This document shows positions 2,967 to 34,982 of a stretch of 64,000 bases of DNA, in pieces; position 1 is the stretch's first letter; the number at the start of each line of letters is the position of its first letter. A program made the position numbers and the translations under genes. Below the pieces are notes generated by a model, which did not search any database, was not told the origin of the DNA, and saw nothing but the letters and a program-made list of their open reading frames with translations. Source of the stretch: a virus; IMG/VR virus record IMGVR_UViG_3300045136_000892. One strand, given 5' to 3'.

Positions 2967-4526
2967 ATGCGGATTAGCCAACTCAATAGCGGAAATGCTC
3001 TCAGCTTCGCCAACCTCATCCCAGGCAGCGCCATGCTGCCGATCGAGCAGGGCGGCATTACATATCCCATAACGGCCCAGGACCTTCTCCAGGCTGGCCA
3101 GCTCTTCATCGACGTGCACGCTTACGGAGCCAAGGGCGATGCGGTTGGCAACCACGACGGCGTGGTGACCGGCGGCACGACGTTTTCCGCGGCCAGCTAC
3201 CAGTTCCCCGCCTCTCGCGTGGGACAGACGATCTATGTGAACGGCAGCGCGAGGGTCATCACCTCGGTCTCGAACGGGGTGGCGACCCTGTCGAGCAGCG
3301 TGACCAATGGCACGGGCATCCCCTGGCTGGTGGGGACGGACGACACCAACGCCATCGAGGCGGCCATGCAGGCTGCCAGGACCGTGGGCGCGGCGGTAGG
3401 GGACGGCTCGACCTCCGAAACGAACTCCTGGGGTCCGATTCCCTTCGGCGGTACGGTCATGCTCCGCTCGGGACGGGGTTACCTCGTCAAGAACACGCAG
3501 GCCCGGTTCGACGCCGGGAAGACCGCCGCCATCGTGGTGCCCCGCCGCTGCGCCCTGCGCGGGGGCGGCATGGGCCAGACGCACATCATTCTTGCGCCCG
3601 GCAATGTCGGCCACGGCGTCACCAACGAGAACTCGCAAATATCGGGCGGTAGCTGGTCGGACTTCCTCCAGGCCCAGGATTTCTCCGTGTTCTGCAACGG
3701 CGGATGGCAGTCCAGCAGTTGCCTCAGCGGCGTCTACGTAAAGGTGGCCTTCAACAATTATGTGAAGACCGACGCCTTCCCCTACATGGCCAACATCCGA
3801 GTCTTCGAGGCCAAGCAGGATGCCTTCTACATCAGCGGGCGAGGCGAAGGCGTGTACTTCAACCTTTTCGCCGGCAATGCCTTCCGCTACGGATTCTTCA
3901 TCGACGGCTCGATGGACAGCCGCTTCTTCGTCTGCAACTCCGGCGGCGCCTTCAAGACCGGCTTCCGGGTCAACAAGTCGGCGAACATCCACCTGACGAA
4001 TTGCAAGTCCTACTACTCGGGCGCGACTGGGGGCAGCAGCAACGCAGACTGCGCCAACTTCGCCCTCCTCGCGGACAGCTTCGTCAACGGTTTGGTCTAC
4101 CTCACGAACTGCGAGGCCCAGGAGAGCCGGGGTTCGGGCTTCTACATCGAGAGCGGCATGAACCTGCTGAATGGCTGCATCTCCTCGGACCCCGGCCGCG
4201 CGGCGTTGGTAGCCACTGGCACGCCGCCCACCGTCCGCGCCGGCTACCACCTGAAGGACGCCAACTCGGCCCACCAGAACCCGAAGTACAACCGCTTCAA
4301 CAGCTGCATCGCCCAGCCGACGCTAACTTTCGATTACAACGACCTGTCCAATACCGCGTCGTGCGGCACCAACGCCCTCTACATTGAGGGGACCGCGAAC
4401 AAGGGGAACATTGGCGACATCTACACCTTCCCCCAGGCCACCTACTCCGACTCGAAGGTGGCAGGGACCGGCACGACGAGCGGCCAGAACACCGGCCTGC
4501 GCGTTGATGGTGTGGCCTTAACCTAA
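2967..4526 (+). CDS. Tailspike-like beta-helix protein (pectate lyase 3-like)
   Basis: DVHAYGAKGD..TDDTNAIEAAMQAA motif followed by Gly/Asn-rich beta-helix-like sequence. Confidence 0.75.
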   Translation: MRISQLNSGNALSFANLIPGSAMLPIEQGGITYPITAQDLLQAGQLFIDVHAYGAKGDAVGNHDGVVTGGTTFSAASYQFPASRVGQTIYVNGSARVITSVSNGVATLSSSVTNGTGIPWLVGTDDTNAIEAAMQAARTVGAAVGDGSTSETNSWGPIPFGGTVMLRSGRGYLVKNTQARFDAGKTAAIVVPRRCALRGGGMGQTHIILAPGNVGHGVTNENSQISGGSWSDFLQAQDFSVFCNGGWQSSSCLSGVYVKVAFNNYVKTDAFPYMANIRVFEAKQDAFYISGRGEGVYFNLFAGNAFRYGFFIDGSMDSRFFVCNSGGAFKTGFRVNKSANIHLTNCKSYYSGATGGSSNADCANFALLADSFVNGLVYLTNCEAQESRGSGFYIESGMNLLNGCISSDPGRAALVATGTPPTVRAGYHLKDANSAHQNPKYNRFNSCIAQPTLTFDYNDLSNTASCGTNALYIEGTANKGNIGDIYTFPQATYSDSKVAGTGTTSGQNTGLRVDGVALT

Positions 4527-4542: not shown

Positions 4543-4896
4543 ATGATCGCACTCATCGAAAGGCGGTATCACCAAGTCAGCATCGCGTCCGGCCAGAACA
4601 TGACGGACCCGATCAATCTACAAAACGACTCGTTGGCCGGGATCATTTTCCCCGACGTTGACATGACAAACAGCACGCTGAAGCTGCAGGTGTCGGACAA
4701 GCCTGACACCGGGTTCGTCACACTCAAGGAAGGGCGCGGGGCTGGGGCCAGTGACTTCACGATCAACGTCTACCGTAACCAGGCGATCAGCTTCGAAAAC
4801 CTCGCACTCCTCGCCGGCTGGAAGTACGTTCGCCTCGCCGGGGCCCAGGCAGAGGCCGCAGCCCGCCAACTGATCCTGGCCCTGCGGCCTGTCTAA
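4543..4896 (+). CDS. Hypothetical phage virion protein
   Basis: 117-aa ORF in operon, TAATG-coupled to next gene. Confidence 0.6.
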   Translation: MIALIERRYHQVSIASGQNMTDPINLQNDSLAGIIFPDVDMTNSTLKLQVSDKPDTGFVTLKEGRGAGASDFTINVYRNQAISFENLALLAGWKYVRLAGAQAEAAARQLILALRPV

Positions 4897-8423: not shown

Positions 8424-8499
8424 TGGAGCGGGGTGCCGGATTCGAACCGAGCTCCTCCAGCTTGGAAGGCTGGCGTGCAACCGTCAGCACTTACCCCGC
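8424..8499 (-). tRNA. tRNA-Gly(TCC), atypical (A8/U14, bulged T-stem)
   Basis: GCGGGGT/ACCCCGC acceptor, U73, encoded CCA, CCAGC-CTTCCAA-GCTGG anticodon arm, TTCGAAT loop. Confidence 0.8.
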
Positions 8500-14065: not shown

Positions 14066-14620
14066 CTGGCTTGCGGGGAGGATGTCCTGGAGTCGGCAGC
14101 CATCCGATGTCGACTCCGGGATGCCCACGGCGATCAGTCGCTCGCGAACCGTCCGGAGTTCCGGTTCGGTGTTGGCCAGGAAGAGGAATGGAGCGTGGGA
14201 GCGATAGTAAAACGAGGGAATTCCCTGCGTGCTCAAGTACGCCCGCTTCGATTCCCGTTGGGCTTCGGCATCAAGCTCGTGACGCCAGTCGTTCCCTTGG
14301 TCAAAGCAGACCATGTAGGCTGGTCGAAGCCGCCTGAGCTCTCTCACGATGAAGGCGAGTGGGGCGTGCTCGATTGTCGCTTCGATCATCTTGTGCTCGG
14401 GGACAGGTATCCCGGTGTGGGGATCGAGCAGCAGGCCGAAGCGTGCGGCTGGTGGTGACGCGGGATCGTAGATCGGCATCGAAATCAGCAGGGAGTACCT
14501 TGCACGGAGATCCTTTGGAATAAAGCGGTCGTGAGCCATTAACGGGGCGATCACCGAAAGCGAGTCGGCCCAGAACCGCTTCACCAAATCGAAGGAGTCG
14601 CCGAGGTACTTCTCGCGCAC
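14051..14620 (-). CDS. Hypothetical protein, last gene of RNA-repair operon
   Basis: 189-aa ORF 9 bp after the HTH gene. Confidence 0.65.
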   Translation of the reverse strand: MREKYLGDSFDLVKRFWADSLSVIAPLMAHDRFIPKDLRARYSLLISMPIYDPASPPAARFGLLLDPHTGIPVPEHKMIEATIEHAPLAFIVRELRRLRPAYMVCFDQGNDWRHELDAEAQRESKRAYLSTQGIPSFYYRSHAPFLFLANTEPELRTVRERLIAVGIPESTSDGCRLQDILPASQSEQP

Positions 14621-14629
14621 CGGCCCACC

Positions 14630-14851
14630 TCAGATACGAGATCGGCGTCGTCTCGCTCGTCCAACAGCCAAGCTCTCGACCACCTTGGTGATGGCCAGCT
14701 CATCCGCCCGGCTGATCTTCGACTTCCCAGACAGTTTACGCCGAATCGTCGACGGGTCACAGCCGAGCAGACGGGCGAGCCTGGTCTGTCCTCCCGTGTT
14801 TCGATCGTCGTTCAGGACGTTGCAGATCGCCCGCAGCTCAACAGGGGTCAT
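14630..14851 (-). CDS. Small HTH DNA-binding protein
   Basis: GQTRLARLLGCDPSTIRRKLSG helix-turn-helix; ATGA coupling to HD gene. Confidence 0.75.
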   Translation of the reverse strand: MTPVELRAICNVLNDDRNTGGQTRLARLLGCDPSTIRRKLSGKSKISRADELAITKVVESLAVGRARRRRSRI

Positions 14852-15393
14852 GCCTTCCCCCGCTCCAAACTCGCGTGGATGAGCTTCAATTGCGCTGCTT
14901 GCAGCGTTGAGTAGGCACGTTCCCAAAGCTCGGTATTACCGTGTTTAAGCACTCCGAGTAGCGCTTCTTTCTCGCGCAAATAGGCCTTGGCAAAAGCCTT
15001 ATCGTGCTCCACGATGGACCCCGTGTTGTCGATCAGGTCGGCCAGCTTGATCGTAGCGCCGTCCGGCGACGATCGGGCCAGATGTTCCCTATCCAGCCGC
15101 TTCCTCACCTCGCGGCTCCCATCCTCAAGCCGGGACACATCGGTCACCTCGATCACGAGCAGAGTCACCCTTTCGCCGAAGACGTCCTGAAGCTCGGCCG
15201 GCGTCACTTCTGTGTCCTCCAGCACGTCGTGCAGAGCGGCGGCAGCGATCACGGCAGGGTAACTGATGTACTCGGCAACGATGGAGGCGACGTTCCGGCA
15301 GTGGTTGGCATACGGCTCGCCGGTGTATTTCCGCTTCTGCTGCCGATGGGCACACTTGGCGAAGCCGAGGGCCAGAGTCGGCAGGTCTGTCAT
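14848..15393 (-). CDS. HD-domain RelA/SpoT-type small alarmone hydrolase (Mesh1/SAH-like)
   Basis: AHRQQKRKYTGEPYANH, AAALHDVLEDT, IKLADLIDN; ATGA coupling to rtcB. Confidence 0.85.
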   Translation of the reverse strand: MTDLPTLALGFAKCAHRQQKRKYTGEPYANHCRNVASIVAEYISYPAVIAAAALHDVLEDTEVTPAELQDVFGERVTLLVIEVTDVSRLEDGSREVRKRLDREHLARSSPDGATIKLADLIDNTGSIVEHDKAFAKAYLREKEALLGVLKHGNTELWERAYSTLQAAQLKLIHASLERGKA

Positions 15394-16631
15394 CCCTTCA
15401 CGCATAGCACCTGCTTCAGCTCATAAGCGATTTCCACCAGATCCTGCTGCGCCGCCATGACCGCATCGATCGGCTTGTAGGCCGCCGGGCTCTCGTCCAG
15501 GACCCCTTCGTCCTTTCGGCACTCGACACCAGCAGTCGCCTTTGCGTGGTCTTCGAGGCTGACGCGTTTGCTGGCCTCGCCCCGGCTCATCACCCGTCCG
15601 GCGCCGTGCGAGCAGCTGCAGAATGATTCCTGGTTGCCCTTGCCCCGCACGATGAACGACCGGGCACCCATCGAGCCGGGGATGATCCCCAGATCGCCTT
15701 GGCGGGCACGGACGGCCCCCTTGCGGGTGAGCCAGACGTTCTTGCCATAGTGCTGCTCGCGGGCCACGTAGTTGTGGTGGCAGTTCACCGCAACCTCGTC
15801 CGGGCGGCCGACCCGGCCGGGGAAGTGCCGCTCCAGCACCCTGAGCACCGCCCGCATCATCACCTCGCGGTTCGCCCGGGCGAAGTCCTGCGCCCAGGTC
15901 AGGGCCTCGACGTAGTCGTCGAAAAGGTCTGACCCTTCCGGAATGTAGGCCAGGTCGGCGTCCGGCAGGTTGACGAACCAGCGGCGCATCTCCGCCTTGG
16001 CCCGCTCGATGAAGTAAATGCCGAACTTGTTCCCGATGCCCCGACTGCCGGAGTGGAGCATCACCCAGATAGCCCCGTCGGTGTCGAGGCACAGCTCGAT
16101 GAAGTGGTTTCCGGTGCCGAGCGTGCCGAGGTGGTGCGGAGCGCGTGTTGCGGACCGGGCCAGGTCGGGGTGCTTGGCGACGATGGCTTCGAGGCGTTCC
16201 TGAAGCGACGGCCCGAAGGCATCACTCTTGAACGCCCACGCGGATTCGTCCGGCAGATCGCCCCAAGCCCCACGATCGCTCGCCCCGCCGTTGTCGGTGC
16301 GACCGTGCGGCACCGCCGCCTCGATGTCGGAGCGGATCTCGAACAGGTTGTCGGGCAGGTCCTCAGCCCGAAGTCCGGTCCGAACGGCCATCATGCCGCA
16401 ACCGATATCCACGCCCACAGCCGCCGGAATGATCGCCCCGACTGTGGGGATGACCGAGCCGACGGTGGCCCCCATGCCCCAGTGGACGTCAGGCATGACC
16501 GCGACATGGTGATGGATGAAGGGCATCCGGGCGACGTTGCGGAGCTGGTCGACGGCTTTCTGGTCGAGAGGTACGCCTTCGGTCCAGCCGTAGATCGGAA
16601 CGGCTTCCTTGCCGAGGAACTGCCTACTCAT
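15390..16631 (-). CDS. rtcB: RNA 3'-phosphate/5'-OH ligase RtcB
   Basis: MPDVHWG, VGVDIGCG, LGTGNHF, HSGSRG, HHNY, RKGA, PGSMG, SHGAGR, DESPAAYK. Confidence 0.95.
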   Translation of the reverse strand: MSRQFLGKEAVPIYGWTEGVPLDQKAVDQLRNVARMPFIHHHVAVMPDVHWGMGATVGSVIPTVGAIIPAAVGVDIGCGMMAVRTGLRAEDLPDNLFEIRSDIEAAVPHGRTDNGGASDRGAWGDLPDESAWAFKSDAFGPSLQERLEAIVAKHPDLARSATRAPHHLGTLGTGNHFIELCLDTDGAIWVMLHSGSRGIGNKFGIYFIERAKAEMRRWFVNLPDADLAYIPEGSDLFDDYVEALTWAQDFARANREVMMRAVLRVLERHFPGRVGRPDEVAVNCHHNYVAREQHYGKNVWLTRKGAVRARQGDLGIIPGSMGARSFIVRGKGNQESFCSCSHGAGRVMSRGEASKRVSLEDHAKATAGVECRKDEGVLDESPAAYKPIDAVMAAQQDLVEIAYELKQVLCVKG

Positions 16632-17922
16632 TGGCAGATTCAAACTTCACGATGTAGTCGAGGACCTTGTTCGACCAGCCGTCGATGTGGACCCACTGGC
16701 CGTAGCCGACGCCATTCTTGTTGCTCGCGACGTTGATCAGGTAGCCCTTCATCTGCGGTACCGGGTCGTGGCTCTGCTCGTCGGTGATGACGATCAGCCG
16801 ATCCCGAGCCGGCAGCGAGCGGACCGCCTTACCCAGTTCCGTCCCGCCGTGCGGCTGAGCACCAGTGATCGCATCCCGAAGGGCAAACCCACGCCGTCCC
16901 GGCACCTCGACCAGGCTGTTGGAGAAGGTGAAGACCCGCAGGTCGGAAAACATCTCCCGGCCGATCATCGCCAGCGAGCAGGCCACATCCATCCGGTTCA
17001 GCTCGGACTTGGAGGACAGCGCGGAGTCCATCGATCCCGACACGTCCACCAGGATGATCGTCTTGCCGCCCAGCTTCTCGCGGCCCGCGAAGCACTCGAA
17101 GAACTTGGCCTCCAGCTCAGGCTCGAACTGGGGGTTGTGCCGCGCCGAGGCGATGAAGTTGATCGGTAGGAGTCGACCGGCCTTCACGTCGCGCAGGCCT
17201 TCGCGGATCGCCTGGTCCTCCACGCCCGCCTTCGTCATATTGCGGACGTTGCGGAGCATGGCGAGTCCGCCAAGCTTGCCCTCGGAGAGTAGACGAGACC
17301 ACGAGGCCTTCTTGTCACCACCCTTCGACAGCTCGACCTCCCAGGTATCCGGAGTAGCCAGCTCGCCTTTGACGAGCTTGCGCCAAAGCTCGGCCTGTTC
17401 GAGATTGGCCGGCTTGGGGCGGGTGATCCGCAGGGCGTCGCGCAGTTTGACCGCCTTCTGACCTCCGTTGTACTTGGCTAGCTGGTACTCGTCGAACTTG
17501 CGGAAGGAGTCGCCCAGGCCGCGCTTGACCTGCTTGGCCAGCGGTTCGTCCTTGTTAGCCTTCCAATAGATTGACAGGAACTCGGTGATATCGTCCGGGC
17601 GGAGGATGACGCGGGGAAAGAGCCCCTTGGCCTGCGCACGGCCTTCCTTGGTCCGCATCAGCTCACGGGCGAGCAGGAGCGGGACGTGGCGGAGGCGCAT
17701 GTCCTCCTTCGCCTGGACGGCGACGCGGGCGACATCCTCGGCAGGCACGAGCTTCACCAGCTCGGCGATCCGCTGGCCGATGGTCTGGCCGTCCTCGTAG
17801 AACTCCGACTCCCAGAGCAGGCAGGACATGACGGAGCGTTCGAGTTGAGCGAGCGCGTTGATACGGGCAGCCGGAGCGCCTTCGTGGGTGAACTCCTTGC
17901 GGATTCGGTTCAGGGTAGCCAT
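16624..17922 (-). CDS. rsr: TROVE/vWA protein, Ro60 (Rsr) orthologue
   Basis: FYEDG, LAKY, TWEVELS, AMLRNVRN, MIDAS DVSGSM, GGT, IVITDEQ; next to rtcB and Y-like RNAs. Confidence 0.9.
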   Translation of the reverse strand: MATLNRIRKEFTHEGAPAARINALAQLERSVMSCLLWESEFYEDGQTIGQRIAELVKLVPAEDVARVAVQAKEDMRLRHVPLLLARELMRTKEGRAQAKGLFPRVILRPDDITEFLSIYWKANKDEPLAKQVKRGLGDSFRKFDEYQLAKYNGGQKAVKLRDALRITRPKPANLEQAELWRKLVKGELATPDTWEVELSKGGDKKASWSRLLSEGKLGGLAMLRNVRNMTKAGVEDQAIREGLRDVKAGRLLPINFIASARHNPQFEPELEAKFFECFAGREKLGGKTIILVDVSGSMDSALSSKSELNRMDVACSLAMIGREMFSDLRVFTFSNSLVEVPGRRGFALRDAITGAQPHGGTELGKAVRSLPARDRLIVITDEQSHDPVPQMKGYLINVASNKNGVGYGQWVHIDGWSNKVLDYIVKFESANE

Positions 17923-17943
17923 GACACACCTACTTTCAATTGC

Positions 17944-18070
17944 GGGCGGGGAAGATTCGGAGAGGGACGAAACTGAGCTACTGAACCTTGCGGCCCAGGC
18001 GGGGATCGAACCCGCGACCTCCGGCGAACCGGCGCTCTATCCAAAGTATCCCTGTCCTGCACCACCGCCC
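17944..18070 (-). ncRNA. Y-RNA-like (YrlA-type) unit 1; tRNA module opened in the D-loop, anticodon loop replaced by UUCG
   Basis: GGGCGGTGGTGCAG..GGGATACTT | TGGATAGAGC, CCGG-TTCG-CCGG, T arm, CTGGGCC-GCAA-GGTTCAG, TAGCTCAGT | ..TCTTCCCCGCCC. Confidence 0.8.
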
Positions 18071-18082
18071 TGTTGCGGAAAC

Positions 18083-18212
18083 CGTGCGGGGAAGAAACGA
18101 CAAAGGTACAAAGCGTCCTAACCATTAGACGACGGCCCCGAAGGACCGGCGGGATTCGAACCCGCATCTCTCTCGTGGAAAGAGAAGTAACCCTTGCCTG
18201 CACCACCGCACG
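18083..18212 (-). ncRNA. Y-RNA-like unit 2; permuted tRNA with TCC anticodon loop
   Basis: Same terminal stem; CTC-TTTCCAC-GAGAG, T arm, CGGTCC-TTCG-GGGCCG, D arm GTCTAATGGTTAGGAC. Confidence 0.8.
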
Positions 18213-18223
18213 ATGGTTCAAGA

Positions 18224-18357
18224 GGAGGGGGAAGAGACGATAAAGGCACGTACGTGCTCTACCAGCTGAGCTACCGGCAGGTCGATCTGCCGGACGGGAC
18301 TCGAACCCGCGACCACGCGATTACAAGTCGAAGTAACCCTTATCTGCACCACCCTCC
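18224..18357 (-). ncRNA. Y-RNA-like unit 3; permuted tRNA with TGT (Thr) anticodon loop
   Basis: Same terminal stem; CGA-CTTGTAA-TCGCG, T arm, CCGGCAG-ATCGAC-CTGCCGG, TAGCTCAGCTGGTAGAGC. Confidence 0.8.
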
Positions 18358-18366
18358 AAAACTTAA

Positions 18367-18428
18367 GAGCCGGGAAGATCGTCGAAGGTTCGCTTTCCAA
18401 TAAGTAGCCCTCGACTGCACCACGGCCC
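18367..18428 (-). ncRNA. Minimal Y-RNA-like unit 4 (stem only, no tRNA module)
   Basis: GGGCCGTGGTGCAGTCGAGGGCTACTT-short loop-ACCTTCGACGATCTTCCCGGCTC. Confidence 0.7.
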
Positions 18429-18438
18429 GATGCAAATC

Positions 18439-21260: not shown

Positions 21261-21468
21261 CGGGGCGGGGTTGCGGCCAAGTGGGCGGGGGCGAGCGGCG
21301 GGGGAAGCTGTGCGCGTGGAAGTGGGTGGAGGGGGCGGGGAGAGGTATGGGGTGGGGAAGTGAAGGGCGGATATTTTTAAAATATTTCAACACCATAGCG
21401 AGTTTCTAGCGCTATGCTTAAAAATCAGTTGCTTAACATTCCGAAGACGACTACTTTATCCTTAGGCG

Positions 21469-21558
21469 TGCCCGTGATCGGACTCGAACCAACATACCCG
21501 CGTGAGCTAAGGTGCCAGGATGACAGCCTGGTGCGTCTACCAATTCCGCCACACGGGC
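21469..21558 (-). tRNA. Class II tRNA with Leu-type body and Asp (GTC) anticodon; no encoded CCA
   Basis: GCCCGTG TG GCG GAATTGGTAGA CGC A CCAGG CTGTCAT CCTGG, long variable arm, GTTGG TTCGAGT CCGAT CACGGGC A. Confidence 0.75.
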
Positions 21559-21661
21559 ACACCTAAGGATAAGTGCGTCCACACCGTAAAGCCGGGCATG
21601 GACGCGGTAGTCATCTAACTACGGAGGGGGCATATTCATGTTCCTTTTGTTGGTTGGACTC

Positions 21662-22291: not shown

Positions 22292-22470
22292 CCCCGAGGC
22301 GGCATGTGTCGCCTTGGGGCTTGATAACCCCTTGGTTAGCGGTTTTGTACAGCCGTGATTTGTACTCCTCGCTTACGGCGGGGAGGCGTGCGCGCATGTT
22401 CAGGCGCGAGCTAAAGGCGCACGCGACCTTCTAACCAAGGTTTATCAACTCCCCGTCACCAGTGGGGATT
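22292..22470 (+). ncRNA. Structured leader resembling phage c4/CI-type antisense-controlled leaders
   Basis: Hairpin 22292-22319; TTGATAACCCCTTGGTTAG (22321) complementary to CTAACCAAGGTTTATCAA (22431); second partial target GGGGATTGTTAT over the start codon. Confidence 0.5.
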
Positions 22471-22585: not shown

Positions 22586-23542
22586 TCAAGCCACCATCCA
22601 CCTCTGGCTATACCCCTTCCACTGCCGCGACACAGGCGCAGCCAGGGCGGCGCCCACCAGCATCAGATACTGCTCGCCATTGCTCACCCGGCGGTTATCC
22701 TCGCGCCATGCCATCTCCGCGGCGTACAGGCCGAGATACGGCCCTGCAATGTGGTGATGCGTGCCGACCTCGGCCCGGCGCAGGCGGCTGAAATAGCTCT
22801 CTGCTTGATTGGTGCAGGCTCCGTTCTCGCTATAGGCCCATTTGTGGTTCACCCGCTTCGTCAGATATTTCGCGTGCAGCGCATCCCAAGCGGGCGCTTC
22901 ATCGGCGTGGATCACCGAGCCAGCGGCCACATGCTTCTGCACCAGGGGCACGGCCTCATCCTCCGAGCGGAACACGAAGGGTAGCGTCCGGCCCTTGCGC
23001 TCGCGCATGACGACGACGACCTGGCGCTTGCCCGTTTGGTTTGCCGCCAGGCGGCGGTCCTTGCGGTCTTCCTTGCGGTTCTCCGGCTTCACATGCCCGC
23101 CGAAATAGCCGCCGTCCACCTCGACCTCCCCCGATAGCTGACACTCGGCACGCATCGCCTCGCGGAGTTTGTGGGAGAGCACGAAGGCAGTCCGGTACTG
23201 GACGCCCAGGTCGCGGGATAGCTGCAGGGCGCTAATGCCCTTGGCCGCGTTCGTGAACAGGGCGATGGCCACCAGGATCTCGCGGATCGCCAGCTTGCGG
23301 GAGGCGAAGATCGTCCCCGAGGTCACGCTGAACTGGTGGCTGCATGCCTTGCACTTCCAGAGCGCCCGCGTCGTGTAGGTGTAGAGGGCGGCGCAGCGGC
23401 AGCGGGGGCAGTAGGGCTTGCCGCCCGTATCGGCCCAGCGGATGGCCTGGAACGCCTCGGCGGCCTGCTCGTCCGTCATGGCCATGATCGCCCTCAGAGA
23501 GAGGGACCGGGCGGCGGAGGAGAGGAGGAAGTGCTGGGTCAT
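22586..23542 (-). mobile_element. IS1595-family transposase
   Basis: Zn ribbon CPRC..CKAC..FSVTSGTIF; VEVDGGYFGG, HADE, VNH, TNQAESYFSRLRR. Confidence 0.92.
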
Positions 23543-24088: not shown

Positions 24089-24460
24089 CTATGCATGGGC
24101 AGGGCGTGACTTGGGAACGTACTTCTCGGGAGGCGACTGAAGACCCGCCCTGTCAGTCGTAGCCAAAGTGGACCAGGCTGATTGCAACTCGTCCTTCGCG
24201 GTGTGGACGTTCTTAAGTGCCTGATGAATCTGATCCGCAGTCGGCCAACGGTTTGCGTCTGGGCTTGGCCGCGAATCCGAGCGAATCATAACAGCTTCGG
24301 CTGGCATTATGACGCTGCAATTGCTGAATGAGAATCGTAGCGGCGATTCAAACAACATCATCGCCACACCCCGAATCATGCCGATCATTTCGTCGCAGCG
24401 GGCGGTAGCTTCTTCGTACTTTACTCTGGCATCCAGATAGCGTCTTACAGGGTCGGTCAT
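24089..24460 (-). CDS. Hypothetical protein
   Basis: AGGAG RBS, 123-aa ORF. Confidence 0.6.
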   Translation of the reverse strand: MTDPVRRYLDARVKYEEATARCDEMIGMIRGVAMMLFESPLRFSFSNCSVIMPAEAVMIRSDSRPSPDANRWPTADQIHQALKNVHTAKDELQSAWSTLATTDRAGLQSPPEKYVPKSRPAHA

Positions 24461-31356: not shown

Positions 31357-33105
31357 CTAGGGATTCCGGCTGGTAACGCGCTCAAAGAGCCGGAGCGTGT
31401 TGTGCGCTCCGCGCCGCTTGTTGCGATTGATGCCTCGAAAGATCAGGACCTCTATCCCAAGGTCCTTGCAGACTTTGCAGCGGCAGGCCTTCCACGGCCG
31501 CTCCTCCAGCGTCTTCCGGTAGGCGTCGATCAGGCTGTCCCCCAGCAATTCGGCGCGGGAAAGCAGCCTGTCATAGGCGAGCACGGCCGAGAGGGCGGAA
31601 TCGATCGACGTTTCCCCTCGGTCGTATGCACGGAGTTGGCGGAGAGCGCTCTTTTCGAGCCCGCGCAGCTTCGCTTCCGGCACCCCGGACGACTGCAGCC
31701 GCTTCAAGGTGCGGGGGTCGCTGAGCGGTGGTACCCTAATCGCTGCGTACCACCGTCCGTCGACGCCGAGGTAATTCTGGTCGGACCTGAGCCATGCCTT
31801 TCGGAAGTAGGTGGCGCTGTCAAAGCTCCCCACCTCGCACTCCCTGAAGTGGCCCTGAAGTGACGGGCGGAAAACGCCGAGCAAGTGAATCCAGGGCCTG
31901 ATCCTGGTCTTTGATAGCTTGCCATGAACCGCCTTGACGATCTCAAGCACCTCGGCGTCGGACCTCGGCACGAGGCCGCCCAGGGCGATGTGGCGATAGC
32001 CCATCTCCGAATATAAGCCGACCTGGTTGGCGTAGCTCTCGGCGTCCAGCCCCTGAATGACGCCGACTGGCGTGAAACTCGCCGCCCGCTCACGATGGGT
32101 CTGGATGAACCGTTCGGCGTTGTCCTGGGTGAGCCTCACCCTCGCCGTGCGCTCGGCCTCGGAAAGCGACCGCTTACCGTTCGGCGTGACGATCTCGGGA
32201 ATGGGGATGTGGTCGACGCTCGCCCCTAGGTCGAAGTCGTACAGGTCGTAGAGTGTCACGGCCTGTTCGACAGAGATGGTCGGCGCTTCCTCATTCGCAT
32301 AGGAGAAGGCCCCGCAGTCACCGAACGCCCACTGGTCGTCATGGAGGTTGTAGAAGTCCCTGACCGACCGCGGAGCCAGGGAGTCCTCGCTGTCCTTGCC
32401 GACCCGCTTCAGCAGGCCCTTGGTGCCCAGATTCTGGGCGAGGCTCACCAGGACTCCATCGCACAGGCGCTTCGGCCGCATCAGGCCGATGCTGTGCTGC
32501 TGCCGGCGCGACGCGCGCTGGCTGTGGGAAAAGCGGTCGTTCTCGAAGTCGTAGTCCAGGTCGAGGAAATCATCCCAGTCGGGAAGGAAGTAGAGCGGCC
32601 GCCCCAGCCTTGGCAGGTCGGCGACCCGCCGGGGCTTGGTCGGCACGATCTCCCGGAGCATGCTGCGGAGCCGGCTCAGCTTCATCCCGATCGGCCCATC
32701 GACTACCTGGACCGTCGGGCGAGGCGCCCGTAACAGATCGGGGGATATGCCGAGCAGGTAATCCTGCCCCAGCAGCAGGTCGATCCGGGCATGGGAGCCG
32801 GCCCAACCACGAAGCGTGCTGGTGACCGAACCGCCCAGTTCCGCAGCCCGCTCCGGCGTCATCCGCTGGTCGTAGGTCGAGATGGGGGAGACGCCCCCGA
32901 TCATCCCGTACTTGGCGGAAAGGACCGCGATCGAGAGGGTAGAGGGCCAGCGGAACTCACGCAGGAACGAGCGGAGCACCCGGAATGTCGGGCCGTCATA
33001 GAGGCTGACCGCCGGGAGGAGACACTCGGATTTCCGCTTAACTGCTGAGCAGCCCAGGACGATGAGCCGTTTTGCTCCGGTGGTGGAGGGCGCTGCTGGC
33101 GGCAT
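31357..33105 (-). CDS. dpdA: DpdA-like guanine transglycosylase with N-terminal DUF6884-like domain
   Basis: YFLPDWDD, GDCGAFSY, VDH, GVIQG, ALGGLV, HLLGV, SFDS, CRCKVC..HN; N-domain LGCSAVK..LYDG..LSAKYG; start uncertain. Confidence 0.8.
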   Translation of the reverse strand: MPPAAPSTTGAKRLIVLGCSAVKRKSECLLPAVSLYDGPTFRVLRSFLREFRWPSTLSIAVLSAKYGMIGGVSPISTYDQRMTPERAAELGGSVTSTLRGWAGSHARIDLLLGQDYLLGISPDLLRAPRPTVQVVDGPIGMKLSRLRSMLREIVPTKPRRVADLPRLGRPLYFLPDWDDFLDLDYDFENDRFSHSQRASRRQQHSIGLMRPKRLCDGVLVSLAQNLGTKGLLKRVGKDSEDSLAPRSVRDFYNLHDDQWAFGDCGAFSYANEEAPTISVEQAVTLYDLYDFDLGASVDHIPIPEIVTPNGKRSLSEAERTARVRLTQDNAERFIQTHRERAASFTPVGVIQGLDAESYANQVGLYSEMGYRHIALGGLVPRSDAEVLEIVKAVHGKLSKTRIRPWIHLLGVFRPSLQGHFRECEVGSFDSATYFRKAWLRSDQNYLGVDGRWYAAIRVPPLSDPRTLKRLQSSGVPEAKLRGLEKSALRQLRAYDRGETSIDSALSAVLAYDRLLSRAELLGDSLIDAYRKTLEERPWKACRCKVCKDLGIEVLIFRGINRNKRRGAHNTLRLFERVTSRNP

Positions 33106-33651
33106 CTGCACAATCCCCGGGCCTCGCCTCAGTCGCGTGGGGCCAGCCTTCGTATAGTCTCTAAACTGCGTGGCGGCATGACAATTTTGCGTCACGGACG
33201 AAGCCGCCGCAAGCGAGTAGCTGGAGTACTCCCTGCATGCACGCCGCCCCGTTGTCGGCCCGAACTTCCCCGTTCCGGTGAGGGCGCGCCACGCCTGCAG
33301 CGAGTCCATGCCAGACGCCTCGCCCACACATCCCGCCGAGCACGCCGAGGACTTTGCGAGACGCTAAACGCAGGAACTGAACGGCCAGACGGGGTTCCAG
33401 TTCGCCGAACAATAAGCCCGGGAAGCCGTCGAATCGGTTACGCGAGGCCCAATCCCACGATAGCCAGCATGGATGGATATCCCGCTTTCCCCGCCTCAAC
33501 TTCCCGATGGCCGCCTGATCTCTGCACGTGCAGAGAAACGGTCAGGGATGGCTTGAAATCCTCGAAAAATCTGGGAAAATCTAGAAGCGGTTTGGAGCGG
33601 CGATGTGGCATCTAAGTCATTGCGAGTTAAGAATTTACGCTGCGTTCGATC

Positions 33652-33785: not shown

Positions 33786-34982
33786 ATGCCCGGACGACGC
33801 CGCAGGGAGCCGGCCCCCTTCTGGTGGGCGGCCCGCAATTCCTACTATCTCCAGGTCGGCGGGAAGCAGATCAAGCTCTCGCCCGACCTCGACGAGGCGA
33901 GGCGCCTCGCGCACGGGATCCTGGCCGAACGGTCCACGGAGGAGCTCCCGGCCGTGATCAGCCCGGCCGGGCCGCTCGTCGTCGAGGTCTGCGACCAGTT
34001 CCTCGAGTGGTGCCGGGCCCACAAGGCGCCCCTCACGTACGAGGCCTACCGCAGGAGGCTCCAGCACCTGGTAGATGACCTCAAGGGGCATGGCGAGTCG
34101 CTCCTTTCGGTCGTTGAATTTCGCCCGCGCCACGTCTCGCGCGTCATGACCGCGCACCCCGGATGGTCGGCCAACACCAAGGCCGACTTCGCTGGGGCGT
34201 GCGGCCGCGCGATGAACTGGGCCCTCAAGCAGGGGATCGTCGAGCGGAACCCGATCGCCCACGTCGAGAAGCCGGGCCGTAAGACGCGGGACCTGATCGT
34301 CTCGCCGAAGGACCTGGAGCTCATCCTCTCGGCCGTGCTCGAGCCGACGCTCCGCGACCTGGTCGAGCTCGCCTGGGAGACCGGCGCCCGCGTCCAGGAG
34401 CTCCGGAAGATCGAGGCCCGCTTCGTCGACCTCGAACGCTCGCGGATCGTCCTCCCGCCCAAGGAATCCAAGGGCGGGCGGCACCATCGGGTGATCTACC
34501 TCGGCACGCCGCGCGCCCGGGGGATCGTCGCCCGCCTCGCGCGTGAGCGGCCCGAGGGCGCACTCCTCAGGAACGCCGACGGGGAGGCGTGGACCAAGGA
34601 CGCCATCAACTGCGCCTTCCGCCGGCTCAGGTTCCGGATCGCGGAGCTCCTGATGGAGCGGGAGGGGACGGCCCGGCCGCCCCACCCGGCCGGCGGGCTC
34701 CTCCCCGGGGCCCGGGCGGCCAGGCGTCTCGCGCTCGAGCGCTGGAAGGAGGAGCGGGGGCGCGTCGCGCGCGAGCGCGTGCCGAGGTTCCACCTGGGCG
34801 CGCTCCGCAAGGGCTTCGCCACCGAGGCCTTGAAGGCCGGGCTCGACACGGTCACCGTCGCCCACCTGCTCGGCCACAGGGACGGAACGATGGTCTCCCG
34901 GCACTACGGCCACGTGCAGCAGGACCCCGAGCACATGGCGCGGGCGGCCGCCCGGGCTAGAGGCGGAGGTGGCGCAGGCTGA
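33786..34982 (+). CDS. int: Tyrosine recombinase/integrase
   Basis: ETGARVQEL, K, ALRKGFAT, LLGH, HYGH; next to att fragment. Confidence 0.92.
   Translation: MPGRRRREPAPFWWAARNSYYLQVGGKQIKLSPDLDEARRLAHGILAERSTEELPAVISPAGPLVVEVCDQFLEWCRAHKAPLTYEAYRRRLQHLVDDLKGHGESLLSVVEFRPRHVSRVMTAHPGWSANTKADFAGACGRAMNWALKQGIVERNPIAHVEKPGRKTRDLIVSPKDLELILSAVLEPTLRDLVELAWETGARVQELRKIEARFVDLERSRIVLPPKESKGGRHHRVIYLGTPRARGIVARLARERPEGALLRNADGEAWTKDAINCAFRRLRFRIAELLMEREGTARPPHPAGGLLPGARAARRLALERWKEERGRVARERVPRFHLGALRKGFATEALKAGLDTVTVAHLLGHRDGTMVSRHYGHVQQDPEHMARAAARARGGGGAG

Follow-up and report, generated by a model that had tools for sequence, protein, structure and literature searches.

Natural tRNAs whose body and anticodon specify different amino acids have been described before. 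The allo-tRNAs (Mukai et al. 2017, PMC5389517) are class II molecules of serine or alanine identity that carry non-cognate anticodons and occur patchily in soil bacteria and mobile DNA. Their acceptor/T arms are 8/4 or 9/3, the D stem is long, Sec-like and closed by a tetraloop, and the discriminator is G73 or U73 (PMC5389517). The anticodons found most often in them include GUC and GCG (PMC5389517, PMC7609411). A similar mismatch is found in tRNAProX of Streptomyces and Kitasatospora (PMC10404621; review PMC11415595), which has a class I body and proline identity, coexists with normal tRNAs, and is encoded beside a dedicated synthetase paralogue, ProRSx. A tRNA-shaped module also occurs in the Y RNAs YrlA and Yrn1, which are encoded beside Rsr, where it sits on a stem made from the two ends of the RNA (PMC4201824).

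The rules by which synthetases choose among such bodies are set out in a 2023 review (PMC9976931). In E. coli, leucine identity depends on A73, A15-U48, G18G19 and A20a, and neither the anticodon nor the variable arm plays a part (PMC9976931). Aspartate identity calls for G73, G34, U35, C36 and C38, with G1-C72 and G2-C71 conserved, and G34, U35 and C36 are the strongest determinants for AspRS in bacteria (PMC9976931). For tyrosine the elements are A73 and U35 on a class II body, joined in bacteria by G1-C72 (PMC9976931). Here we describe a viral tRNA gene, tRNA(GUC), whose sequence sets these rules against one another. The gene lies in the window, by which we mean the whole 64,000-nt stretch of DNA analysed, taken from IMG/VR virus record IMGVR_UViG_3300045136_000892.

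A leucine-type tRNA body with the anticodon GUC

The gene and the two flanking arms that pair around it are as follows.

Positions 21469-21558, minus strand: class II tRNA gene with a Leu-type body, A73 and no encoded CCA (ARAGORN, Rfam and the match of the D arm)
Positions 21522-21524, minus strand: anticodon GUC, in the loop C32 U33 G34 U35 C36 A37 U38 (sequence, Rfam alignment and ARAGORN drawing)
Positions 21559-21572, minus strand: 5' leader arm of a 14-bp helix, in which U-1 pairs with A73 (inverted repeat I1)
Positions 21456-21468, minus strand: 3' trailer arm of the same helix, which together with A73 (21469) pairs with 21559-21572 (I1 and pair probabilities)

The gene is 90 nt long, and ARAGORN calls a 91-nt tRNA with anticodon GTC at 21468-21558. 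It belongs to the Rfam tRNA family RF00005, given that its score with the full covariance model (53.7 bits; E 1e-8; full model, positions 1-71) exceeds the gathering score of 29. The acceptor stem has 7 bp (GCCCGUG/CACGGGC) and is followed by U8 and G9. The D arm, GCG-GAAUUGGUAGA-CGC, combines a 3-bp stem with the 11-nt loop GAAUUGGUAGA, and a 5-bp anticodon stem (CCAGG/CCUGG) carries a canonical 7-nt loop, CUGUCAU. The variable region of 21 nt forms an interrupted stem of 6 bp closed by a tetraloop; U48 follows, and the T arm (GUUGG-UUCGAGU-CCGAU) has a 5-bp stem with two G.U pairs and the loop UUCGAGU. The 3' end is A73, at 21469, with no CCA encoded. All 20 of the 20 cloverleaf stem pairs are standard, 18 of them Watson-Crick and two G.U. 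The presence of two G.U pairs in the T stem is rare among the relatives described below (2/81) and may weaken binding to EF-Tu. The preliminary description had read from the letters a fully paired class II cloverleaf with a Leu-type D arm, A15:U48, a long variable arm and A73, together with the anticodon loop CT-GTC-AT. Both readings are borne out by the sequence, by the Rfam score and alignment and, for the anticodon, by ARAGORN. We conclude that tRNA(GUC) is a genuine, structurally intact tRNA gene.

The likeness to bacterial class II tRNA-Leu extends through the 7/5 arm lengths, the 3-bp D stem with its GAAUUGGUAGA loop, the long variable arm, and A15:U48, G18G19, A20a and A73. Each of the 5426 complete E. 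coli genomes has annotated tRNA-Leu genes that agree with it at 24 of 25 bases over positions 7-31. Among named phages it is closest to a canonical tRNA-Leu(GAG), that of Erythrobacter phage XM05. DNA nearly identical to the tRNA(GUC) region was not found in plasmids or named phages, collections from which records of this genome or of a very close one may be absent. Where tRNA(GUC) departs from tRNA-Leu is in its GUC anticodon with A37, in place of NAG or NAA, and in its longer variable region, the lack of an encoded CCA and the 14-bp flanking helix.

The full bacterial leucine identity set is thus present: the A73 discriminator and, read from the D arm GCGGAAUUGGUAGACGC and from U48, the A15:U48 Levitt pair, G18G19 and A20a. 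Only the decoding element differs, since GUC reads the Asp codons GAC and GAU. For aspartate the picture is mixed. G34, U35 and C36 are present, as are G1-C72 and G10, but in place of G73, C38, G2-C71 and a class I body the molecule has A73, U38, C2-G71 and a 21-nt variable region. Comparison with tRNA-Tyr finds A73, G34, U35, G1-C72 and a long arm, with C36 replacing A36 and a D arm of Leu type. Because the leucine set is complete and the aspartate set is not (A73, U38, C2-G71), leucine is the most likely charge of tRNA(GUC). Charging by AspRS is possible, and so is charging by TyrRS, because A73, U35 and G1-C72 on a class II body make up most of the bacterial tyrosine set. Two general rules invoked in the preliminary description, that LeuRS largely ignores the anticodon and that tRNA-Asp has G73, agree with the published identity elements of E. 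coli (PMC9976931), and tRNA(GUC) has A73 and U38.

The molecule is not an allo-tRNA. Both are class II RNAs with non-cognate anticodons, but tRNA(GUC) has a 7-bp acceptor stem, a 5-bp T stem, a 3-bp D stem, an 11-nt D loop and A73, and its identity set is of Leu type.

A family of Leu-bodied tRNAs with non-leucine anticodons

We searched for relatives with a pattern comprising the Leu-type D loop, N9, YUGUCA, class II spacing and a standard T loop. Because the pattern fixes them, the Leu D loop, U33, A37 and the T loop are invariant by design, and the numbers given are minima. Matches were obtained at 37 loci in species-representative bacterial genomes, at 97 in metagenomes and in one other viral contig (L003), and ARAGORN calls approximately 110 of the loci as an 80-97-nt tRNA(GTC). 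The carriers, judged by record titles, are bacteria of at least 12 phyla, including Gemmatimonadota, Actinomycetota, Alpha- and Gammaproteobacteria, Myxococcota, Bacteroidota and Acidobacteriota, and further Desulfobacterota, Chloroflexota, Planctomycetota, Campylobacterota and others. The second viral carrier, L003, is a complete 67.5-kb phage with a Leu-bodied tRNA(GUC). Shared ancestry of the two viral carriers can be set aside, given that the phage and our contig have nothing else in common.

Among the 81 well-formed unique sequences (those with at least 6 of 7 acceptor pairs), A73 is present in 69, U48 in 80, U8-G9 in 69 and an encoded CCA in 16. The anticodon stem, which the pattern leaves free, is fully paired in 67 of the 81 and uses 4-6 pair types per position. 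Because this stem remains paired with such varied pair types, and because U48 and U8-G9 are retained, the variation among family members indicates selection for tRNA structure and for the Leu identity set. The preliminary structural reading, in which a class II body combines leucine identity with an Asp anticodon, is correct, and it is strengthened by the relatives, which mostly keep A73 and U48 and show abundant compensatory changes in their stems.

The host genomes of family members also hold canonical tRNA-Leu genes, and canonical class I tRNA-Asp was found by a strict pattern in three of five. Since the bodies of the canonical tRNA-Leu genes are clearly unlike that of the GUC copy, the GUC copies are not fresh anticodon mutants of a resident gene. 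The coexistence with normal tRNAs, like the conflict between body and anticodon, recalls tRNAProX. The difference is that the Leu-bodied genes have neither a synthetase nor any other conserved partner beside them: when neighbouring ORFs were compared all against all and the 105 nearest neighbours were scanned with Pfam, no shared partner emerged, and the neighbours are housekeeping genes with about seven transposases among them.

Relatives with other anticodons, whose search had been proposed as a check, were found as well. Across 401 genomes of a single class, the non-A35 anticodons on Leu-type class II tRNAs are GCG (three times), GUC, CGC, CGG, GGC and GCC. Those with GCG, CGC, CGG, GGC and GCC all have A37, as do the cognate tRNAs for these anticodons. 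Leu-bodied A73 forms in viral contigs carry UGG, UGA, ACC, AUA, UCC and UCG. Two anticodons of the family, GUC and GCG, are also common in allo-tRNAs. Sequence comparison thus places tRNA(GUC) in a widespread, patchily distributed family of Leu-bodied class II tRNAs with non-Leu anticodons. The closest relative found for the copy in the window is 79% identical. We found no published description of such a family in the full-text literature searched, although one may exist in other papers.

Several family loci have features of their own. In phage L003, a class I tRNA(ACU) at 14066-14143 (minus strand) adjoins the Leu-bodied gene, and its loop, CUACUAA, is one base from an Arg-ACG loop. In a metagenome locus, ARAGORN calls a tRNA(ACU) of similar size about 1.1 kb from tRNA(GUC) (L075:3748-3821), and a class II tRNA(GGU) lies 0.4 kb from the GUC copy in two others (L068 and L072). 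In a Solirubrobacterales group (L024, L026, L035, L045, L066 and L094), the partner of the 3' end is not the called 5' end but a stretch further upstream (e.g. GCCCCUGAGCCGAC in L026), which forms 14 perfect base pairs with it. These genes have about 12 extra nucleotides before the D arm and may represent a different architecture.

The flanking helix and the viral neighbourhood

The leader and trailer of tRNA(GUC) form part of inverted repeat I1 (21 nt, 95% complementary). The acceptor stem and the 14 flanking pairs, one of which is G.U, together make a 21-bp duplex. Pair probabilities for the first 12 flanking pairs are approximately 1.0, and an 11-mer of the leader arm is unique within the window. 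Elsewhere in the family the flanking helix is at most 7 bp. Of about 840 other tRNAs examined, only 4 have leader/trailer helices of 12-16 bp, and each of these lies in a phage contig. Specifically, the helix reached 12 bp in one of 715 distinct tRNAs of the fetched loci and was longer in none, and three helices of 13-16 bp occur among 138 tRNAs in 80 viral loci that encode a relative of Rsr. The four other helix-flanked tRNAs are the following.

L336, positions 742-824: canonical phage tRNA-Tyr(GUA), in an Rsr-encoding phage contig
L336, positions 4217-4290: canonical phage tRNA-His(GUG), in the same Rsr-encoding phage contig
L342, positions 4555-4637: canonical phage tRNA-Leu(UAG), in an Rsr-encoding phage contig
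L218, positions 2829-2901: canonical phage tRNA-Asn(GUU), in a record with no Rsr

All four helices are perfect, and the first pair is N-1:N73, as in tRNA(GUC). The Tyr, His and Leu examples are high-scoring and lie within tRNA arrays, and because these canonical tRNAs carry the same kind of helix, such a structure need not block maturation. Pairing between leader and trailer hinders RNase P, and therefore an additional step, either double-strand cleavage or 3' trimming through the helix, is likely to be needed. The Ro/Y RNA/PNPase machinery is reported to trim through structured RNA (PMC4201824). Helix-flanked tRNAs occur at 3/138 in Rsr-encoding viral loci versus 1/569 in other viral loci (Fisher p ~0.016). 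The association is fragile, since one contig (L336) supplies two of the three cases, and we take the possible link between the helix and Rsr as a lead only. The same 156-kb contig has a permuted tmRNA (L336:4810-5059, 83.5 bits) amid its tRNA array.

The neighbouring features of the window that bear on these questions are listed here.

Positions 22586-23542, minus strand: IS1595-family transposase, 1 kb upstream of tRNA(GUC) (Pfam E 1.7e-43)
Positions 21433-21462, plus strand: weak sigma-70-like site, TTAACA-18-TATCCT, 9/12 (a lead only)
Positions 33786-34982: integrase, beside a step in G+C
Positions 17943-18433, minus strand: four tandem Y-RNA-like units (~18366-18433, 18222-18357, 18083-18213 and 17943-18072), upstream of rsr (Rfam YrlA matches and conserved end blocks)
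Positions 16624-17922, minus strand: Rsr (TROVE/vWA; Pfam)
Positions 15390-16643, minus strand: RtcB RNA ligase (Pfam)
Positions 14848-15405, minus strand: HD_4 protein, after RtcB (Pfam)

The virus record measures 143 kb at 66% G+C and encodes a tail sheath, tape measure, large terminase and primase. The large terminase shares about 37% identity with its counterparts in temperate Burkholderia, Bordetella and Acinetobacter phages, and weak hints favour a high-GC proteobacterium as host. Also encoded are a type IIG restriction-modification enzyme, a GajB-like helicase with a Cas4-like nuclease, a 1784-aa SNF2 protein and AbiEii. A DpdA protein of the DNA 7-deazaguanine transglycosylase type (E 7e-101), with DUF6884 fused at its N terminus, is encoded at 31357-33327 of the window (minus strand), and an Acb1 (anti-CBASS) domain forms the N-terminal part of a 504-aa protein at 94950-96464 of the genome. 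With its myovirus-like module, integrase, IS1595 transposase, and defence and anti-defence genes, the record fits the mobile-island setting proposed in the preliminary description, and we take the region to belong to a temperate phage or a prophage.

The transposase may belong to an element that ends at the tRNA. A candidate inverted-repeat pair, I2 (21570-21591 and 24194-24215; 22 nt, 82% complementary), would put the end of the element directly against the leader arm, and no target-site duplication was seen around these candidate ends. In four unrelated loci (the window, L029, L036 and L046), the Leu-bodied tRNA(GUC) has an IS1595-family transposase 0.7-2.2 kb upstream. Adjoining the 3' end of the transposase gene in the window is a match to sRNA-Xcc1 (22377-22465, plus strand) that, at 30 bits, falls short of the gathering score of 53.

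On the strand of the tRNA, the upstream region showed no sigma-70-like promoter. Two sigma-70-like sites occur in 1.5 kb, compared with 0.6 expected, and from the one listed above antisense transcription would begin at the tRNA's 3' end, which we offer only as a lead. A 10/12 antisense promoter-like site stands in the same place in the relative from Noviluteimonas lactosilytica (L015), among repeated TGTCAAC/TTGACA motifs downstream of its tRNA(GUC). As a family trait, the antisense promoter is rejected by the lack of enrichment (6/78 versus ~4.8 expected). The L015 locus has, at 1420-1600, a tRNA(GUC) preceded by a 12-bp hairpin whose loop contains UUGUCAU. Hairpins that mimic the anticodon loop are not enriched in the flanks of the family, and the L015 loop has 8 nt. 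Likewise, a dedicated antisense partner can be discounted, as no complementary stretch beyond chance exists anywhere in the contig; a 14-nt stretch complementary to the T arm at 21648-21661 is at chance level (an estimated ~0.8 expected in 700 nt).

The contig's other real tRNA is a tRNA-Gly(UCC) at 8427-8499 of the window (minus strand), which has an encoded CCA, A8 in place of U8, an unusual D arm and no flanking helix, and which reads the rare codons GGA and GGG. ARAGORN calls of Leu(CAG) and Arg(TCG) in the contig were treated as false, having mismatched stems and no Rfam match, and one falls inside the 1784-aa ORF. Codon supply is not the purpose of tRNA(GUC), since GAC is common in the contig (4.3%; GAC and GAU together, 5.7%).

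The Y-RNA-like units, rsr, rtcB and the HD gene lie on the same strand as tRNA(GUC) and 3.5 kb downstream of it, and an opposite-strand gene block, which includes a staphylococcal-nuclease-type protein, lies between. Three of the four units have a YrlA-type tRNA-like domain, and the first is short and without one. Their Rfam YrlA scores (43.1, 27.1 and 20.3 bits) are all below the gathering score, and common to the units are a 5' block (GGUGGUGCAG..GGGNUACUU) and a 3' block (UCUUCCC). tRNA(GUC) itself resembles the Y RNAs in having a tRNA-shaped module on a stem of the RNA's two ends and in its proximity to rsr and rtcB. It differs from YrlA, whose stem is permuted, closed and acceptor-like and which has no full anticodon arm, and the gene has no match to YrlA (Rfam RF02553).

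What the tRNA might do, and what it would mean

The best explanation, in our judgement, is that tRNA(GUC) is a real member of the Leu-bodied family that is released from its helix, charged by LeuRS and competes at Asp codons, a reading in which our confidence is middling. If transcribed, the precursor would be freed from the helix by host nucleases, through double-strand cleavage or 3' trimming followed by RNase P, and the trimmed RNA would then receive CCA. This release route would be expected to work, because the helix-flanked Tyr, His and Leu tRNAs of other phages are canonical. The mature RNA would most likely be charged by LeuRS, which does not read the anticodon. Once charged with leucine it would compete with tRNA-Asp at GAC and GAU, causing low-level or conditional Asp-to-Leu substitution. 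Thus, if tRNA(GUC) is ever matured and charged, it could introduce a wrong amino acid into proteins. The carrier's gain might lie in a stress or abortive-type effector, in host sabotage or in a role off the ribosome, all of which are possible. The roles of toxin, abortive effector or decoy put forward in the preliminary description are possible but unsupported, as no partner gene, toxin-antitoxin pair or conserved neighbour that would back them was found around the family loci.

An unlikely alternative, but the first that should be weighed, is that the RNA acts off the ribosome as a bait or decoy, offering its U33-G34-U35 loop on a foreign body to enzymes that act on GUN anticodon loops, for example guanine transglycosylases or anticodon nucleases like colicin E5, while RtcB and the Rsr/Y RNA module handle the products. 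RtcB seals 2',3'-cyclic phosphate and 5'-OH ends, which are the ends such nucleases leave, and tRNA(GUC) stands in a block with many genes of RNA repair and anti-defence, namely RtcB, Rsr, four Y-RNA-like genes, the HD protein, DpdA and the Acb1 domain. GUN anticodons also recur among the other helix-flanked phage tRNAs (GUA, GUG and GUU). However, one of those tRNAs is Leu(UAG), which is not GUN, and a stoichiometric decoy would be a poor defence against a catalytic nuclease. Moreover, most family members occupy ordinary chromosomal sites with no RtcB or Rsr nearby, the complete phage L003 carries its tRNA(GUC) without Rsr, and even in our contig the opposite-strand block parts the tRNA from rsr.

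Slightly less probable is that this copy is a silent passenger, carried on mobile DNA after an IS insertion removed its promoter and neither expressed nor selected. The copy could be silent because no promoter-like site lies upstream and because an IS-like element may abut the leader arm, with its transposase 1 kb away. The lack of any relative closer than 79% would also suit this explanation. Against it stand the 20 intact stem pairs, the variable-arm stem and the 14-bp flanking helix, which has a single G.U in the extension, and this integrity argues for selection or for a very recent arrival.

It is also conceivable, but improbable, that the gene supplies a spare Asp tRNA, or a Tyr acceptor, in which the synthetase follows the anticodon and the Leu body escapes a host factor that recognises the body of tRNA-Asp. 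Phage tRNAs that evade host anticodon nucleases are known and provide a precedent. The strongest bacterial Asp determinants (G34, U35 and C36) are in place, with G10 and G1-C72, and A73, U35 and G1-C72, borne on a class II body, count as determinants for tyrosine. However, A73 rather than G73, U38 rather than C38 and C2-G71 rather than G2-C71 speak against aspartate, and retention of the Leu set in 69-80 of 81 relatives would be unexpected if LeuRS were irrelevant.

The notion of a fifth Y RNA, one that would bind Ro/Rsr and carry an entire tRNA module at the tip of a long terminal stem, oriented as in D. radiodurans Yrn1, can be given very little weight: the end-to-end stem with its tRNA-shaped cap fits, the gene is on the rsr strand 3.5 kb upstream of it, and a natural-order tRNA-like part has also been modelled for Yrn1 (PMC4201824), but nhmmer profiles of the local 5' and 3' stem blocks match only the four units and not the tRNA flanks, so that tRNA(GUC) is not a further Y RNA of that type, and its flanking helix is a perfect duplex without the internal loop common to the four.

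Returning to the reading of a helix-released, leucine-charged competitor at Asp codons, we can sketch a broader proposal that is speculative and rather unlikely as a whole. Bacteria and phages might keep encoded missense Leu tRNAs aimed at abundant GC-rich codons (GAC, CGC, GGC, GCC and others), and the phage Asp-to-Leu member might be a helix-locked precursor that is released on demand, possibly via the nearby Rsr, Y RNA and exonuclease machinery, and that corrupts translation as a device for abortive infection, exclusion or takeover. An Asp-to-Leu change is harsh and the codon is present in nearly every protein, and therefore such a gene should be either tightly controlled or a weapon.

Regardless of how the carrier might benefit, the current annotation of Leu-bodied tRNA(GUC) genes as tRNA-Asp is probably wrong. 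The helix-flanked precursor and its apparent recurrence in phages with Ro/Rsr point to a route of tRNA precursor processing that has so far gone unstudied. Furthermore, natural tRNAs with mismatched identity are already known for serine and alanine (allo-tRNAs) and for proline (tRNAProX), and a family of leucine identity acting at Asp, Arg, Gly, Ala and Pro codons would widen the evidence for deliberate missense decoding encoded in genomes.
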